Assembly: GCA_046726375.1 (NCBI GenBank)
Contig: JBKPAJ010000007.1
Coordinates: 6,488 to 70,487, forward strand
Length of the DNA: 64,000 nt
Direction: 5' to 3'
From: Acidobacteriota bacterium
GTDB lineage: Bacteria; Acidobacteriota; Vicinamibacteria; Vicinamibacterales; UBA2999
In this document: piece by piece, positions 56,931-64,000 of the stretch
Position numbering within the stretch: position 1 is the first letter of the stretch
How the letters are laid out: every line of letters begins with the position of its first letter
Position numbers and translations under genes: made by a program
The notes under the pieces: model-generated
What the model was told of the DNA's origin: nothing
The model's input: only the letters and a program-made list of their open reading frames with translations
Databases searched by the model: none

Positions 56931-57001
56931 CAAAAGGAAGCGGCAGCGCCGGACGATAATCGGCAGGCCGCTCAAACAACGCGTTGTTCAGCGCCGCTTC
57001 A
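56931..57001 (-). terminator. candidate terminator of the FHA/kinase operon
   Basis: On the minus strand, GAAGCGGC ... GCCGCTTC is followed by CTTTTG. The interior contains the palindrome AACAACGCGTTGTT. The long loop makes this uncertain. Confidence 0.35.
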
Positions 57002-57832
57002 GAGAACTCGAGCAATCGAGGCCCGGTCAATTTTTACTCGCACTCGCGCCTCGCCGAGCGCGATTTCATCGTCCGTGTGTAGCCGAATTCCTCGCGAACC
57101 GGCGGGCACCCCAATCGTTCGGCCGTTGCGCACGACGCCGGTGCCGTGCGCGCTGCCATCGTCGTAGACGCGATATTCATCAGCGGCTTCGAGGTATTCG
57201 ATATGCGCGTGGCGTCGGGACACGCTGTCGTTCACAGCCCCCGCGGCGTCAGCGAAGGCGACATGATTGGTCCGAATCAACCGGTTGCGGTGATCGCGCA
57301 CCTCTGCGCAGCGTCCCAAGTCGATCCGCGCGTGCGCAAATGAATACGCGGTTGCGTCCGCCGTTCCGGTGACGATCGTGAGCTCGAGCCGGGTGTCCGC
57401 AGCGAGGACAGGAACTGCGATCGGACTCCCGGCTGTCACACGTGCAAACTCGATGTGAAAACTCGCATGCTTCCACTCAGGTTGCGGTTGCGAAAAGTAA
57501 TTGACTTTCACCGTCAGGTCGCGCGTGTCGCACGCGGCGGCGTAAAGCCGCTCCACGATTCTGTCGCGCAACGATGGCTCGCCCTCGAGCACCGCTTCGA
57601 GGCGGGCCCGCGTCTCGCGCGACGGCGCCGCCACCGACACTTTCAACCGATTGAATGGGAACACCTGTTTCCCACGACCGGCGGGCTGCACCTCCGCTTC
57701 AACAGCTTCGACGATGGCGTGAATCAGCTCCAGAGGTTCGAGCGGACTCGCATCGGTCATCGCCTGCGCCGCGCCGTTGAGCGTGCGAGCGAGCTTCTCT
57801 TCGAGTTGACGTGCCTTATCGAGAATCTTCAT
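56999..57832 (-). CDS. FhaA-like protein (DUF3662-type N-domain plus C-terminal FHA domain)
   Basis: From ATG 57832 (ATGA overlap with the upstream gene). N-terminus LDKARQLEEKLARTLNGAAQ. C-terminus IDLGRCAEV...SVSRRHAHIEY...YRVYDDGSAHGTGVVRNG...IALGEARV (FHA). Confidence 0.8.
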   Translation of the reverse strand: MKILDKARQLEEKLARTLNGAAQAMTDASPLEPLELIHAIVEAVEAEVQPAGRGKQVFPFNRLKVSVAAPSRETRARLEAVLEGEPSLRDRIVERLYAAACDTRDLTVKVNYFSQPQPEWKHASFHIEFARVTAGSPIAVPVLAADTRLELTIVTGTADATAYSFAHARIDLGRCAEVRDHRNRLIRTNHVAFADAAGAVNDSVSRRHAHIEYLEAADEYRVYDDGSAHGTGVVRNGRTIGVPAGSRGIRLHTDDEIALGEARVRVKIDRASIARVL

Positions 57833-60800
57833 GGTTGCAACAGTCCTGCGGCGGCAGCGGCGTTCACGATCTCGCCGGCAACTGGCGCAGCTGCGCGGCC
57901 GCCGTATCCGGCGTTTTCGATGATCACAGCGAACGCAATCCGCTTCGTCGCGGGCCCATATGGCGCGAACCCGACGAACCACGCATGTGACGGCGCGCCG
58001 GACAGTTCGGCAGTGCCGGTCTTGCCCGCAATGCGCCACGAATTTGCGCGCAGGCTGCGGCCCGTGCCGTTGACCACGACGTCGCGCATGTACCCGGCGA
58101 GAAGATCCGATGCCGCCCGCGCCAGCAACAATTCCGTTTTCGGCCGAGCACCGGGTTCCGCGATCACGCGTACATCGGGCAGCGACCCTCCGCTCGCGAC
58201 GGCCGCAGCCACTCGCGCCATCCGTAGCGGTGTGGTGAGCACCTCGCCCTGCCCGAACCCCGACTCGGGAAGCGTTCGGCGCAGCCGTTGCGCCGAGTTT
58301 CCCGACGTGATCGATATGCCAAGCCGGCGCGCTGTATCGAGGAGCGCTTCCGGGCCGACTCGAAGCGCGAGCTGACCGAAGTACGCATTGCACGACTGGA
58401 CGATGGCATCGTGCATGTCGATCGTGCCGTGCGGATGCCGATCAAGGATGTCGTCGCGCACGGGACGACGCCCGGGAATGCGCGCCCCGGCGCGTCCATC
58501 GGGGAGGAGCGTGCACATGAACGTTTTTTCGCGCAACGCGATATCGCGCCGAAGCGCGGCAATTGCCGTGACGAGTTTGAACGTCGATCCAGGTGTGTAA
58601 AGCCCATACCGAGCGCGATCGAGCAACGCGTCGGGGTTGCCGTTCGTGCCGGCTGCTGGCTGCGTGAGATAGGGCGATGGGTAACTCGCCAACGCAAGAA
58701 TGTCGCCGCTGGCCGCGTCGATCACGATGGCCGCGGCGCGATGGGTCGCCGAGCTATTTGCGTAATTCGACAGAATCACGGCGACCCGGTGCTGGAGGCC
58801 GGCGTCCACCGTCACACCTACGTCATGCGTGCGCGTCAGGAGACGCTTGACGTCAGGATGATCGAAGTCGTGGCGATGGCGCAGCAGCGGAATCAGCTCG
58901 CGGTGATGCTCATAACCGCGCAGCCGATCGTACGCATCGCGCTCGACGTACGAGGTGTTGCTCGCGCCCCAATTCATCCTCGTGGTCGCGTCTCCCAGAA
59001 CATGAAACGCTTCGCCCGCGAGCGGATAGCAGCGTTCGATCGGCTCTGCACAAGTAGCGCCTGGCAACACACCGAGTTTGGCGAATGTCTCGCGCGACTT
59101 GGCGAAGGTCGCGGCATTGGAGGTGGCAAGAGGCAGACCCCGCCGATCGTAAATGGTGCCGCGCGGGATCAGCCGTGCCACGTCGAGCACGCGCGGGTTG
59201 TACTGGTATCTGCGCACACCATCCGCTTGCAGACTGAGATGAGGCTGCACGAGGTAGCGATCGGCGTTCAGCACCTGAACGTCCAGCACTCCGACAACGA
59301 GACCGATCGTTGCCAACGCGAGCACGCCACGCAACCAGCGCATCGGTTTGCGGAACGGTTCGCTCATCTCGCTCCCATCGCGATGCGCCGCAACACCCAT
59401 CAGCATGCCGAGCGCCGCAAAGTTTGCGGCCATGGCCGATCCGCCATAGCTGAGAAACGGCGTGACGACGCCCGTGAGCGGCGTCACCCCGAGAGTGCCG
59501 GCAGCCATGACGATCACCGGCACGATCAAAAAGAGCGTGATGGCAGTTGCGAGGAAGAAGCCGTAATCGCTTCCCGCGCGAAGCGCGATACGGAACCCGC
59601 GCCAGCCGATGACGGCGTAGATCGCGGCGATCGCAATCAAACCGGCGGCGCCCAGTTCTTCCCCGATGGCGGCTAGAACGAGATCGGTGGCGCCTGCCGG
59701 TAGATAACGCGTATCGCCGAGTCCGAGACCGGTACCGAACAGTCCTCCCGTCGAGAGCGCCCACATCGATTGCGCAATCTGATCCCCGCCGCGCACCGCG
59801 TTGTCCCATGGCGACTGCCACATCCGGACGCGATCGGCGAGTGTCGTCGAGATGTTCCAGCGGTAACCAAGGTAGAAGCCTGCCACGAGCACAAGCAGGC
59901 CCGAGAGCGCCATCGTGGCGCGACCTCTCGCGACTGCATAGAGCGCAAGGAACACGCACGACACCAGCAGGGCCGGGCCGAGGTCCTTCTGCAGGAAGAA
60001 AAACGCGAGTGCAGCGGTGACACCTGCGAGCACAGGCAGCACGTAATCCAGGCGCGGCACGTGCAACCAGGCGGGCACGCGGCTATTCCGAATCATGCCG
60101 GTGCGGAGTTGACTGAGCAGCTCCCATCGACGCGCGAAGTAGCCCGCGAGGAACAGCGCCAGGAGCAGCCGAATGGCTTCGATCGGCTGGACGGGACCGA
60201 GATTCACCTTTGCGCTGCTGTTGCCAGGCGCTGTCCCGAGAACCACGAGCACGAGCGACAACCCGAGCGCAGCAACCAGTGGCAGATAGCTGAATCGCAG
60301 AAACACGGCGCGGCGGAAATCGACGAGCGAGACCAGCACCATCGCGCCCAGACCGACAAGCACTCCCTCGGTGTAGCGAATCACGATCATCGTGTCGCGA
60401 AGCGGATCGGGACGCGTCAGCGCAATCGCAAATCCAATAGCCGTGAGCAAATGCGCGGCGGCCAACAGCAGGGGCTCGCCGGACACGCCGCGTAGCCACC
60501 AGAGCAAGAGCACGAGGTAAAACGCCGCGAGGTAGAGCGCCGCGTACGACACAGTCGTTCGCCGAAAGGCATCGTGCGTTCGGACAATGAGCGAAGGCTT
60601 CACTGTCGCGAGCTGATTGGGTGTCAGCACCCGTGCGCTTGCGATCGCGCCGACGTAGGGGATGGCGTGACCGCCGCTGCGGAGCGCAACGACATGCTGA
60701 AACAAAGCGTTCGCCACTGCCCGGCGCTGGGACGCGTCGTCGAAAACCAGTTCGAGCGGACGCTCGAGGTTGGTCGCCTTGGCCACGGTGTTGAGATTGA

Positions 60801-60993
60801 TCACGTGCGCTGCGCGTTGCGGTGCGGCCCACGCGCCCGCTGTCTGCACGCGGCCGTTGTACGCGAGACCGATCGCCAGGATCGCCACGAGCGACGTGAG
60901 CGGCAGCAACACATGCCGTGCATCGAACAAGCGTCCTTCAGCGCTGCTGCACCGAACATCCCGTTCGAGCGCCGTCGTATAGGTCGCACCCAT
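57829..60993 (-). CDS. single-polypeptide fusion of a SEDS glycosyltransferase (FtsW/RodA) and a class B penicillin-binding transpeptidase
   Basis: 1054 aa without interruption. SEDS motifs GGLFGTGLGLG, DLVLAAIGEELG, PFLSYGGSAM. PBP motifs STFK, SCN, KTGTA. Confidence 0.85.
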   Translation of the reverse strand: MGATYTTALERDVRCSSAEGRLFDARHVLLPLTSLVAILAIGLAYNGRVQTAGAWAAPQRAAHVINLNTVAKATNLERPLELVFDDASQRRAVANALFQHVVALRSGGHAIPYVGAIASARVLTPNQLATVKPSLIVRTHDAFRRTTVSYAALYLAAFYLVLLLWWLRGVSGEPLLLAAAHLLTAIGFAIALTRPDPLRDTMIVIRYTEGVLVGLGAMVLVSLVDFRRAVFLRFSYLPLVAALGLSLVLVVLGTAPGNSSAKVNLGPVQPIEAIRLLLALFLAGYFARRWELLSQLRTGMIRNSRVPAWLHVPRLDYVLPVLAGVTAALAFFFLQKDLGPALLVSCVFLALYAVARGRATMALSGLLVLVAGFYLGYRWNISTTLADRVRMWQSPWDNAVRGGDQIAQSMWALSTGGLFGTGLGLGDTRYLPAGATDLVLAAIGEELGAAGLIAIAAIYAVIGWRGFRIALRAGSDYGFFLATAITLFLIVPVIVMAAGTLGVTPLTGVVTPFLSYGGSAMAANFAALGMLMGVAAHRDGSEMSEPFRKPMRWLRGVLALATIGLVVGVLDVQVLNADRYLVQPHLSLQADGVRRYQYNPRVLDVARLIPRGTIYDRRGLPLATSNAATFAKSRETFAKLGVLPGATCAEPIERCYPLAGEAFHVLGDATTRMNWGASNTSYVERDAYDRLRGYEHHRELIPLLRHRHDFDHPDVKRLLTRTHDVGVTVDAGLQHRVAVILSNYANSSATHRAAAIVIDAASGDILALASYPSPYLTQPAAGTNGNPDALLDRARYGLYTPGSTFKLVTAIAALRRDIALREKTFMCTLLPDGRAGARIPGRRPVRDDILDRHPHGTIDMHDAIVQSCNAYFGQLALRVGPEALLDTARRLGISITSGNSAQRLRRTLPESGFGQGEVLTTPLRMARVAAAVASGGSLPDVRVIAEPGARPKTELLLARAASDLLAGYMRDVVVNGTGRSLRANSWRIAGKTGTAELSGAPSHAWFVGFAPYGPATKRIAFAVIIENAGYGGRAAAPVAGEIVNAAAAAGLLQP

Positions 60994-62984
60994 CAGTGCG
61001 GTTCCGGAACTCGCTTGATCGTTGATGGATCCGCGACGACCGTCTCGAGCGCAAACGGTGTCGAACCCTTGGCCGGCGGGCTGTCGAGTTCCCCAATTCG
61101 ATCTTCGATCTGAGCGAGGCGCCGCTGGGCGATGCTGATGTACCTCGGTACGCCGCCGTAATCGCCCGCCTGCCCGTAAAGCGAGAGCGCTTCGCGATAG
61201 GCCTCCGCCGCCCTTGATAAGTAGTCGCGTTCCTGCGAGAGACCTTCGACTTGGCGCGCGCTGCGCGCGAGCGATTCGCCGCGCGCGCGGTAGCCGTCGC
61301 CGAGCTGAACGATCTCACGCGGCGAGGATGTGTATCCGCGCTGCCGTGCCTGGGTCAGCGCATCGGCGCCGCGCTCGACATCCTCGAGTCCGTAAATGAA
61401 CGTGCGCGCGAGACCGAGAAACGGATCCGGCCATTTCGGCCGCAGCTCCGCGGCCTCGCGGAAGGCGGTTACGGCCTCGGTAAACTCCCGGCGTGCCTCC
61501 GCCGGCTGTCTCCGCCCCTTTCGTGCCTCGCCGTTGATGCGGTGGATGTGACCGTCACAGTAGAGTAGCGCCGCTTTGAGCGATCGATCGCCCGGCGTCA
61601 GCGCCAGTGTGCGCGCCAGCGCGTCGCGTGCCATCTGCCACTGCGCTTCTCGAACCGACGGTAGCGGTGAGCGATAGTTCTCAATCACCTTCTCGGCGAG
61701 CGCTACCGATTGATCCTTCAGTGATCGTTTGAGCTTGTCAGTCGCCCAACCGAGATAGCTGCGTCGCTCCAATCGGTCGTATTGCGTCCAGACATCGGCC
61801 AACTCACTGAGTTCGCGCGTCGGGACATACGCCGCGACACGATCCGCAGCCGACGCGACCCACCGTTCATGCGCGGAGAGCACGACATAGAGCATCAGGA
61901 GACCAAGTGCGAAACGCCGGAATCGGCGCGGCTTGCGTGCCGGGACGGCCGCCGGCGCCGGAACCATCGCCGGCGCAGGGATCGGCGGCGGGACTTGGAT
62001 CGGAACCGGCGGTGGAAGCGGCGGTGCGGTGCGACGCGTCGCCTCATCGTCGGCTTCCGCCGGCGGACGCGTGCGGCGCGTCGGCGCCTGGTCCGCGGCC
62101 CGTGCCGGCCATCCCTCCTGTTCCGCGCACGTTTGCGTACGCGTCAACAGACGCTCGAGATCCTCACGAATATGACTCGCACTGTCGTAGCGAGTGAGCG
62201 GGTCTGGTCCGAGCAGCTTGGCCGCAACCGCGTGCACGCCGGCCGGATATGCGCCATCGAGCGACGGCGCCGGCTGACGCGACAGAATGATTTGTTCGAG
62301 CCGTCGGGTGTCCGGCGCCTCAAACGGCGGCCGGCCGCGCAGCATTTCGTGCAGCAACACACCGATCGCCCAGTAGTCGGCATGGCGATCGACTTCGCCC
62401 GATTCGAGCCGCTCCGGCGAGAGATAGGCGACGCTGCCAAAGTCGTTGCGCGTGACCTTGCGGCTCAGCGACAACGCCTTGGCGATGCCGAAATCGAGAA
62501 CCTTCACCTCGCCGGTCGGCGTGATGCGGACGTTGCGAGGTTTGAGGTCGCCGTGCACCAACGATCGCAAGCTTCGATCGCCCATCGTCGCTTCGAATCG
62601 ATGCGCGTCCTCGAGGAAGTGGCACAGCTCGATTGCCGTCGCCGCCGCGCGCTCGACGCTCAAGGGTCCCCGGGTGATCACATCGGAAAGGTTTTCTCCT
62701 TCGAGATACTCCATTGCGACGTAGAAGTATCCCGACTCGATGCCGTGTTCGTATACACGCGGCACATGCGGGCTCTCCTGAGAGAACTGTTTTTGCAGTT
62801 CCGCGCCCCACTGTTCGGCCTCGCGCACTTCACGTGCTTCGCGGTCGCTGCCGTCCGGCACCAGCTTGAGCGCCACGCGAGAACCGAGACGCGTATCGGT
62901 TGCCAGAAAGACGACCGCCATGCCGCCGCGGCCGATTTCGTGGTGAATCTCGAACGGGCCGAGTTGATTGAATACTGTGCCCAT
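60993..62984 (-). CDS. Hanks-type Ser/Thr protein kinase with TM and helical-repeat extracytoplasmic domain
   Basis: GRGGMAVVFLA, VALK, HGDLKPRNV, DFGIA. Pro-rich linker, TM (FALGLLMLYVVLSA), about 290 aa TPR-like C-terminal part. No PASTA repeats. Confidence 0.9.
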   Translation of the reverse strand: MGTVFNQLGPFEIHHEIGRGGMAVVFLATDTRLGSRVALKLVPDGSDREAREVREAEQWGAELQKQFSQESPHVPRVYEHGIESGYFYVAMEYLEGENLSDVITRGPLSVERAAATAIELCHFLEDAHRFEATMGDRSLRSLVHGDLKPRNVRITPTGEVKVLDFGIAKALSLSRKVTRNDFGSVAYLSPERLESGEVDRHADYWAIGVLLHEMLRGRPPFEAPDTRRLEQIILSRQPAPSLDGAYPAGVHAVAAKLLGPDPLTRYDSASHIREDLERLLTRTQTCAEQEGWPARAADQAPTRRTRPPAEADDEATRRTAPPLPPPVPIQVPPPIPAPAMVPAPAAVPARKPRRFRRFALGLLMLYVVLSAHERWVASAADRVAAYVPTRELSELADVWTQYDRLERRSYLGWATDKLKRSLKDQSVALAEKVIENYRSPLPSVREAQWQMARDALARTLALTPGDRSLKAALLYCDGHIHRINGEARKGRRQPAEARREFTEAVTAFREAAELRPKWPDPFLGLARTFIYGLEDVERGADALTQARQRGYTSSPREIVQLGDGYRARGESLARSARQVEGLSQERDYLSRAAEAYREALSLYGQAGDYGGVPRYISIAQRRLAQIEDRIGELDSPPAKGSTPFALETVVADPSTIKRVPEPH

Positions 62985-64000
62985 TACCTGACCCGCCGGC
63001 GGCTCGCGGGGACCGGCGAGCGGCTTTGCTGTGGCGCGACGAAAAACCAGTTGTCTCGCGTCAGCGTCGCGCGCGCAGTGTCGTCGAGACCGGCGAAACC
63101 ATAGGCGGTCATCCCGTGGAACACGTTGCTCACGAACTGCGGCCTGGTATCCGGTTCGACCAGAAGGGCGGCGGCACCAGGTGCCGCTGTGCCGTTACGC
63201 CCGAAGGCATTGTGCGCGATGCGCGGCGATGCACCCGACGCGATCGACAGCGCCGCTCCTGGATTGTCATGCACACTGCTGCCGACCATGCCGGCCGCCG
63301 ACCGATCCGAAAACGCGATCGCGACCCTGGTCGCTCCCGTGATCTCGACATCGACGATGGCAAGCGCTGAATTGCGCACGGACACACCGACACCCAGAGG
63401 TGTTGCGGCATCACCGACGATGCGGAAGCCGGAGAGTTCGGCTGTTGCCAGGCCGTCCGCGACAACGGCGGGCTCGCCGTCCAATGCCGTCGCCGGCAGC
63501 CGAATCGTTGCGCCCCGCGGCACCCGGCTGATGACCCGGACATCGTTCTTGAGATTGAGCTGTTCACGGTATTCGCCCGGCTCCACGATCACCTCGCCGC
63601 CGGCTTTGGCACGCGCAATTGCGTCGCTGATCGACTCGGTGGGCTGCACGATCTGTCGTTGCACGTTTTCCTGGAGAGGGGTGAGCGTCGTCGGCGATCC
63701 GAGTGGGAAGCCGGCGCGCGTGGGTGTGAGCAGGACGCCGAGAAGCACAAGCAATAAGACGGTAAAGACGGTATGCAGGTGCCGTTCGCGTTTGGAGGCC
63801 GGGCCGGGGCGGGTGACAGGGACGCGCGCCCTGGCGAACTGGGCTCCCTCGACGTACACGACCGTGACGTTGTCCTTGCCGCCAGCGTCGTTTGCCGCGT
63901 CAATCAGCGCGTCCACCACAGCCTGCGGTTCCCCGGCGAACCGCTCGACGATCTGCCCGATGGCGGCCGAAGAGACGAGATCGCTGAGTCCATCGCTGCA
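62984..64000 (-). CDS. PP2C-family phosphatase (5' part off-window) fused through a TM to a right-handed beta-helix domain
   Basis: Reverse translation of the window end reads CSDGLSDLVSSAAIGQIVERFAGEPQAVVDALIDAANDAGGKDNVTVVYV (PP2C C-terminal motifs). Then TM LHTVFTVLLLVLLGVLL, then repeats such as FRIVGDAATPLGVGVSVRNSALAIVDVEITG. TAATG overlap with the kinase. Confidence 0.8.
   Translation of the reverse strand, partial: CSDGLSDLVSSAAIGQIVERFAGEPQAVVDALIDAANDAGGKDNVTVVYVEGAQFARARVPVTRPGPASKRERHLHTVFTVLLLVLLGVLLTPTRAGFPLGSPTTLTPLQENVQRQIVQPTESISDAIARAKAGGEVIVEPGEYREQLNLKNDVRVISRVPRGATIRLPATALDGEPAVVADGLATAELSGFRIVGDAATPLGVGVSVRNSALAIVDVEITGATRVAIAFSDRSAAGMVGSSVHDNPGAALSIASGASPRIAHNAFGRNGTAAPGAAALLVEPDTRPQFVSNVFHGMTAYGFAGLDDTARATLTRDNWFFVAPQQSRSPVPASRRRVR

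Follow-up and report, generated by a model that had tools for sequence, protein, structure and literature searches.

Introduction

Among the closest described systems are the two-chain complexes RodA-PBP2 and FtsW-FtsI (structures 6pl5, 8tj3, 8p1u/8bh1), in which a glycosyltransferase of the SEDS family (named after shape, elongation, division and sporulation) and a class B penicillin-binding protein (bPBP) are separate chains. We have studied a gene on the minus strand of a 64,000-nt stretch of contig JBKPAJ010000007.1 (the window, to which all coordinates refer), from a soil acidobacterium, in which the two partners are covalently joined in a protein of 1054 residues. Both halves of this fusion match the two-chain complexes by sequence, with E-values of 1e-16 to 1e-20, and the catalytic residues of the complexes are retained. 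The overall best explanation of the data, to which we assign a probability of roughly 0.8, is that the gene encodes an active single-chain SEDS-bPBP synthase, the third SEDS protein of its genome, which has gained an N-terminal module and is gated by regulators.

A second point of reference is the fhaA-fhaB-pstP-rodA-pbpA-pknA-pknB cluster of Mycobacterium, Corynebacterium and Streptomyces, to which we take the operon described here to correspond in rearranged form. Both combine FHA proteins, a PP2C phosphatase with a transmembrane (TM) segment, a SEDS domain followed by a bPBP, and a Hanks-type kinase; one of the acidobacterial FHA proteins has a weak FhaA_N match, and the SEDS domain of the fusion groups with the actinobacterial SEDS-then-PBP pairs. 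SEDS and PBP are separate in the actinobacterial cluster and form one protein here, and the kinase lies downstream of the synthase there but upstream here. The acidobacterial operon also differs in having a single kinase with TPR in place of PASTA, a second FHA gene at its 3' end, a PP2C with a beta-helix ectodomain, and a synthase with an extra N-terminal module; the canonical gene order and a PASTA kinase are both absent from it.

Single-chain proteins of this kind have been described. A recent survey (PMC12516126, Microlife 2025, 'A global view of morphogenetic peptidoglycan synthases across the domain Bacteria') counts in its main text 117 'bifunctional bPBPs' with glycosyltransferase and transpeptidase in one chain, among them proteins of Rhodococcus jostii (947 aa), Senegalimassilia faecalis (931 aa) and Pedobacter ginsengisoli (1341 aa), and reports genes for a Ser/Thr kinase and a phosphatase on the flanks of the third bPBP of Senegalimassilia and of the Pedobacter chimera. 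The acidobacterial protein carries both PF01098 and PF00905 in one polypeptide, the combination by which these chimeras are defined. As far as that main text describes them, it also shares with them the order glycosyltransferase, pedestal, transpeptidase, the coexistence with canonical FtsW/FtsI and RodA/MrdA-type genes and, with some of them, the flanking kinase and phosphatase. The sequence-only reading of the window had regarded such a fusion as uncommon; given the 117 chimeras of the survey, both the fusion itself and its link to kinase and phosphatase genes must be considered already known, and our own tree (see below) requires at least three origins of fusion. The main text of PMC12516126 (its supplementary tables lie outside this comparison) names no acidobacterial fusion and does not mention an N-terminal module of two TM helices and a ComEA-like ectodomain, and, those tables aside, a description of either the acidobacterial fusion clade or the module was not found in the literature. 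The acidobacterial clade with its ComEA-like ectodomain thus looks like a previously undescribed form.

Catalytic residues, ancestry and regulatory context of the fusion

The two enzymatic halves were readily recognized by Pfam, at scores far above the cut-offs: FTSW_RODA_SPOVE (PF01098) at residues 202-538 (E 3.6e-51, 174.7 bits with a cut-off of 26.4) and Transpeptidase (PF00905) at residues 754-1043 (E 9.8e-39, 133.8 bits with a cut-off of 22.1). NCBIfam likewise places them in the FtsW/RodA and PBP2/SpoVD families, below every equivalog cut-off; since the TIGR ftsW and rodA equivalog models give only 139-171 bits where about 337 are required, the fusion is a member of the SEDS family and not an equivalog of FtsW or RodA. 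Its SEDS domain is also divergent within its own genome, scoring about 175 bits as compared to 322-374 bits for the canonical SEDS genes. The catalytic Asp that SEDS enzymes require belongs to the (H)TDF/L motif, in the region of the large extracytoplasmic loop; in E. coli RodA it is the essential Asp262. The residue aligned to it (chain 8tj3_B) is D437, within GATDLVLAAIGEELG, and all the motifs that had been read from the sequence in the transpeptidase half are present in the fusion: STFK (residues 803-806), SCN (867-869) and KTGTA (991-995). D437, S803, K806, S867, N869, K991, T992 and G993 are invariant in 60 fused proteins whose identity to the fusion ranges from 28 to 54%.

The genome also encodes separate canonical RodA-like and FtsW-like genes, and in an even sample of 201 acidobacterial genomes, which includes three unpublished ones (G049, G152, G024) that carry no individual claim, a fused orthologue occurs in only about 7: the fusion is therefore an accessory synthase. 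A maximum-likelihood tree built from 75 SEDS domains gathers the acidobacterial fusions in a single clade (support 100/100) with a long stem. This clade is joined (100/94) to SEDS-then-PBP pairs from Actinomycetota, Chloroflexota and Armatimonadota; the RodA and FtsW of the genome studied here fall elsewhere, in the PBP-then-SEDS (mrdAB-type) group. Independent fusions that lack the N-terminal domain, in a single frame of about 900-965 aa, were found in Coriobacteriia-like Actinomycetota, one member of the Lachnospiraceae and one of the Limnochordales (loci L054, L058, L103, L063, L060). Those of the Coriobacteriia-like Actinomycetota still lie between PP2C and kinase genes, and the single-origin acidobacterial clade is distinct from them in the tree.

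The fusion is the fourth gene in a translationally coupled minus-strand set of five, in the order FHA, PP2C, Ser/Thr kinase, fusion, FHA, and it overlaps its neighbours on either side by an ATGA, in which its start meets the stop of the kinase gene and its stop the start of the gene downstream. This order is kept at 12 of 12 acidobacterial loci from species genomes of Bryobacterales, Solibacteraceae, Thermoanaerobaculia and unclassified lineages, two of which are broken by frameshifts that are probably sequencing errors. The kinase has TPR matches and a weak hydrophobic stretch at about residues 365-382; the PknB_PASTA model covers only its kinase domain (200 bits, cut-off 450), and no PASTA domain was found. 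The PP2C protein has a clear TM helix (residues 273-291) followed by a right-handed beta-helix ectodomain.

The strongest of the rival explanations is that the fusion is a specialised, conditional enzyme (for stress, differentiation or envelope repair) rather than a housekeeping one, with the kinase, phosphatase and FHA proteins gating it on an external signal sensed by the ectodomains. Its position as a third SEDS beside the canonical genes, its accessory distribution, and the fact that it is always accompanied by a kinase whose ectodomain is of the TPR type and by a PP2C that often carries a beta-helix all fit such a role. On the other side, the homologous RodA-PbpA pair of Actinomycetota works in normal growth. 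The gene neighbourhoods that PMC12516126 reports for the third bPBP of Senegalimassilia and for the Pedobacter chimera are again consistent with conditional use. We put this possibility at a little under an even chance, and it would refine the interpretation as a regulated single-chain synthase more than contradict it.

Some observations weigh against the interpretation as an active, regulated synthase. PBP_dimer (PF03717) has no match in the fusion at E 0.01, which indicates an atypical or reduced pedestal, and, as the PASTA domain is missing and the gene order is different, the regulatory analogy with the actinobacterial cluster may be a loose one.

A divergent ComEA-type domain at the N-terminus

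The region preceding the SEDS core had been suspected of resembling ComEA-type helix-hairpin-helix (HhH) repeats. A ComEA HHH_3 profile was built from 30 loci in the genomes of relatives and compared by hhalign to the N-terminal domain. With an alignment of close relatives (A1) the probability was 62.9% (P 7e-5), and none of 150 permutations scored as high; with an alignment of the diverse family (A3) it rose to 96.6% (P 5e-10), with a score of 48.2 over 68 collinear columns that span positions 4-72 of 73, that is, the whole ComEA domain. The permuted profiles used as controls gave a mean score of 9.5 (standard deviation 2.0, maximum 17.3) and the reversed profile 9.6. Structure comparison pointed to the same family: in an exhaustive VIA-align comparison of the isolated model of the domain with 48,161 chains, first place went to the ComEA-related 2duy_A (Z 7.5, root mean square deviation 2.4 Å, 62 of 65 residues) and second place to ComEA 8dss_B (Z 7.2); both superimpose on the model at 2.4 Å over 62-66 residues. 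They were followed by GspK, XcpX, the HhH-containing parts of Tex, Spt6 and Pol III alpha, TEFM and a number of PsbU chains, all of which presumably have folds of the helix-hairpin-helix type.

We conclude that the N-terminal domain is homologous to, though divergent from, the ComEA-type (HhH)2 domain (HHH_3, PF12836; 2duy, 8dss). The fold is the same and the profile homology extends over the entire domain, a starting NLNT and an ending LKPxxxV motif are common to both, and both are extracytoplasmic, by prediction in the case of the fusion; in ComEA, however, the domain forms the C-terminal end of a small protein, either secreted or anchored, and here it lies between two TM helices of a peptidoglycan synthase. 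A hidden Markov model of the domain, scanned over 80 loci, matches acidobacterial fusions only, and a search with residues 40-175, confined to shorter proteins, returned no stand-alone copy of the module and none on an unfused SEDS protein at E 0.001. K132 and R138 are invariant among close relatives, and R138 is nearly so even at 30% overall identity.

The suspected likeness to ComEA-type HhH domains is right, with the caveat that the hairpins themselves are not retained. In the profile alignment the LPGIG and KGIGE segments of ComEA stand opposite positions that are not glycine, so that both G-h-G hairpins are lost; the single conserved glycine of the N-terminal domain (NVGA) is offset from those of the ComEA hairpins. 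The G-I-G hairpins of ComEA are its contacts with the DNA backbone, and since they are not kept, DNA binding should not be assumed. One could still propose that the domain retains the function of ComEA, binding double-stranded DNA in the periplasm and thereby connecting extracellular DNA, or the uptake of DNA, with the synthase, as its whole-length homology, its predicted exposure to the compartment where ComEA acts and its conserved basic residues K132 and R138 would allow. We regard this as highly improbable: beside the loss of the glycines at both hairpins, a distinct, bona fide ComEA-like gene is present in the genome (G000 C152), the operon is devoid of competence genes, and GspK and PsbU are extracytoplasmic members of the (HhH)2 fold that are not known to bind DNA.

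The case for homology is not uniform. No Pfam family matches residues 1-176 or 46-150 even at E 10, and in a scan of the whole genome with HHH_3 (PF12836) two other loci were matched but not the fusion gene. The isolated model (residues 40-155) has a predicted local distance difference test score (pLDDT) of only 61.5; with it, Foldseek found nothing in the PDB at E ≤0.001, and ComEA 8dss_B came ninth, at E 5.3. These results speak against the assignment, as does, for the ectodomain as a whole, the basis of the periplasmic placement of residues 58-145, which is hydropathy combined with the known topology of SEDS proteins. A feature search of the ESM Atlas with residues 58-145 gave no usable match. 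It might then be argued that these residues are a mere spacer loop whose HhH likeness is the chance similarity of a small helical bundle, the more so as small helical models often reach Z-scores of 7 to 8, the isolated model is of low confidence, and Pfam and ESM Atlas are silent. Chance, however, accounts poorly for a profile score nearly three times the permuted maximum, for an alignment that is collinear from one end of the ComEA domain to the other, for the convergence of independent sequence and structure searches on a single family, and for the conservation of the domain across the clade with a nearly invariant R138; we judge it still less probable than retained DNA binding.

In most relatives the region of the second hairpin is separated from the last helix of the domain by an additional insert of about 40 residues, with the consensus V..IER.P.L..Y.ERL...RE.A; its site corresponds to about 60664-60680 (residues ~105-110), and it is missing in the fusion protein and in a minority of relatives. 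A predicted complex between residues 46-148 and the rest of the protein (172-1054) scored 0.12, below the mark of 0.32, and is not evidence either way.

The first TM helix of SEDS proteins begins in the cytoplasm, as is known from solved RodA structures. With two helices added before it, the N-terminus would be inside and residues 58-145 outside the cytoplasm. In two relatives, P0186 (1271 aa) and P0259 (1331 aa), the N-terminal loop that precedes the SEDS core holds a CarboxypepD_reg-like domain. Domains of this kind usually lie outside the cytoplasm, and their occurrence in this same loop fits its placement outside; it seems that ectodomains are swapped into the stretch between the two extra TM helices.

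Integrity of the reading frame

The reading frame runs from an ATG at 60993 to a stop at 57829-57831 with no internal stops, so the single uninterrupted frame first read from the sequence stands, with the addition that it is on the minus strand. The junction between the halves (59269-59388) was checked with contigs from three samples of one study, possibly including the sample of origin; they span 59108-59649 at about 99-100% identity with no gaps or indels, and the stop or frameshift that might have divided the frame into two genes is absent from them. Every one of the best 120 among more than 3000 database matches, which come from assemblies of JGI, ENA, NCBI and Logan, is a fused protein (993-1740 aa). 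The full-length fused protein is encoded in hundreds of independent assemblies, and thousands of metagenomic proteins retain it at full length. The best 150 of the representatives at 50% identity are mostly fused proteins of more than 900 aa (33-54% identity), and the fusion is kept in 12 acidobacterial species genomes, with a single frame at every intact acidobacterial locus. A natural SEDS-bPBP fusion, as initially proposed, is thus borne out by contigs, independent assemblies and species genomes alike.

The idea that the single frame is an artefact of assembly or sequencing, in which a lost stop or a frameshift has merged a rodA-like and a pbpA-like gene, can draw on the draft state of the source genome (256 contigs) and on close relatives from other phyla in which both are neighbouring, often overlapping genes, but it is rejected as extremely improbable on account of the gap-free contigs, the many fused matches and the fused 50%-identity representatives, to which the conserved and well-modelled linker and anchor helix and the single frame of all intact loci may be added.

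Frameshifts divide the fused gene in two long-read metagenome-assembled genomes of Acidobacteriota and Bryobacterales, L046 and L051. The whole cluster of L051 is fragmented, each gene being in pieces, which points to sequencing errors rather than pseudogenes.

Layout of the protein and of the operon

The features of the fusion and of its neighbours are collected in Table 1. Hydropathy and the full-length AlphaFold2 (AF2) model (pLDDT 80.6, predicted template modelling score 0.71) agree on the layout, and the membrane part of the model contains 13 long helices. Both fit a SEDS core of ten TM helices lying within residues 174-535, the first of them at 175-193, and the region C-terminal to the bPBP anchor is a mixed alpha/beta module of about 175 residues. 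The hydrophobic segment expected between the SEDS and PBP halves was found in this anchor. The N-terminal part differs somewhat from what had been described: about 172 residues, and not 150, precede the first SEDS helix, and they include two TM helices, one on either side of the HhH-like segment, in place of one. The N-terminal tail has the consensus MGVTYTxAxxRD among close relatives, and could be a candidate phosphorylation site or FHA-docking tail.

Table 1. Features of the fusion gene and its operon. Coordinates are those of the window, except for the FhaA-like gene, which is located on L004.
Feature	Coordinates	Strand	Evidence or remarks
Whole reading frame (P0001), 1054 aa	57829..60993	-	N-terminal tail, TM, ComEA-like ectodomain, TM, SEDS, linker, TM, pedestal, transpeptidase
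N-terminal tail, predicted cytoplasmic, residues 1-26	60916..60993	-	Topology from hydropathy and AF2 model
Extra TM helix A, residues 27-45	60859..60915	-	Hydropathy 1.98; long helix 25-54 with pLDDT ~90 in full-length AF2 model
ComEA-type (HhH)2-like domain, predicted periplasmic, residues 58-145	60559..60822	-	Profile and structure comparisons; pLDDT 76-92 in full-length model
Landmarks of the N-terminal domain	INLNT 60787-60801; IPYVGAI 60643-60663; VKPSLIVRT 60577-60603	-	
Extra TM helix B, residues 146-168	60490..60558	-	Hydropathy, AF2 model; immediately N-terminal of SEDS TM1
SEDS glycosyltransferase core, residues 172-540	59374..60480	-	Ten predicted TM helices; Pfam, NCBIfam, hydropathy, AF2, structure-chain matches
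SEDS catalytic D437	59683-59685	-	Alignment to E. coli RodA
Linker, predicted cytoplasmic, residues 541-556	59326..59373	-	SEDS C-terminus to bPBP anchor; hydropathy, AF2; indel-free in contigs of three samples
Predicted bPBP membrane anchor helix, residues 557-575	59269..59325	-	Hydropathy 2.31; AF2 helix 545-575
Putative pedestal (non-penicillin-binding) module, residues 576-750	58744..59268	-	PRGTIYDRRGLPLAT motif; spoVD model at 645-1045; AF2; PBP structures align from ~residue 640
Transpeptidase domain, residues 751-1054	57832..58743	-	Pfam, motifs, family alignment
Transpeptidase motifs	STFK 58576-58587; SCN 58387-58395; KTGTA 58009-58023	-	
Ser/Thr kinase, 663 aa, upstream	60993..62984	-	C-terminal TPR region; stop overlaps fusion ATG
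PP2C phosphatase, 536 aa, upstream	62984..64000	-	TM and beta-helix ectodomain; leaves the window
FhaA-like FHA gene	L004 9152-10021		Further upstream than PP2C
277-aa protein with C-terminal FHA domain, downstream	56999..57832	-	ATG overlaps fusion stop

At three sampled loci, one of Solibacteraceae and two of Bryobacteraceae, the PP2C is short and lacks the beta-helix part. Adjoining the cluster, about 1.6 kb past the right end of the window (L004 10085-10768, plus strand), is a gene for a 227-aa EmbR-like protein with a Trans_reg_C winged helix and an FHA domain, which may be a transcriptional output of the cluster kinase. Two metagenomic relatives join a regulator to the synthase in one frame: P0005 (1740 aa) consists of Ser/Thr kinase, SEDS and PBP, and P0146 (1389 aa) of PP2C, SEDS and PBP. 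If real, these would be Rosetta-stone fusions linking the regulators to the synthase; each is known from a single metagenome contig, and since an ATGA overlap connects the genes, one indel error could have produced it.

Proposed function and implications

As judged from its sequence, the fusion would be a bifunctional enzyme, a lipid II glycosyltransferase and a D,D-transpeptidase in one chain. The joining would make use of the native topology of the partners, the cytoplasmic C-terminus of the SEDS domain leading through a linker of about 16 residues into the bPBP anchor helix and from there to the periplasmic pedestal and transpeptidase. We envisage that the protein descends from the SEDS-then-PBP pair of the cell-wall signalling cluster of FHA, PP2C and Ser/Thr kinase genes best known from Actinomycetota, that this pair was fused once in Acidobacteriota, and that the fused gene also gained two TM helices which would loop a domain of about 100 residues into the periplasm. 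By analogy, the activity of the synthase is probably switched by reversible Ser/Thr phosphorylation that is read by the two FHA proteins. The N-terminal domain, for its part, may be a cis-acting regulatory or anchoring module on the outer face of the synthase, and not a DNA binder.

A more specific proposal, which we consider unlikely, though clearly less so than retained DNA binding, is that the ComEA-derived ectodomain, kept on the outer side of the synthase by its own two TM helices, is a built-in regulator of the SEDS-bPBP unit, either replacing trans-acting activators of the MreC/MreD or FtsQLB type or coupling glycan polymerisation to some polyanion of the periplasm or to the ectodomains that the neighbouring kinase and phosphatase carry. 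If true, this would be an undescribed repurposing of a DNA-binding fold for the control of the cell wall.

Bacteria have SEDS-bPBP pairs as their core cell-wall polymerases, these pairs are targets of antibiotics, and a natural single chain with a fixed 1:1 stoichiometry is convenient for structural and enzymological work. The acidobacterial form offers in addition two testable regulatory handles, namely a dedicated set of kinase, phosphatase and FHA proteins from its own operon and a domain of DNA-binding-fold origin that is predicted to face outward. The clade is abundant among the Acidobacteriota of soil, a major phylum that has received little study and whose cell-wall growth is almost uncharted.

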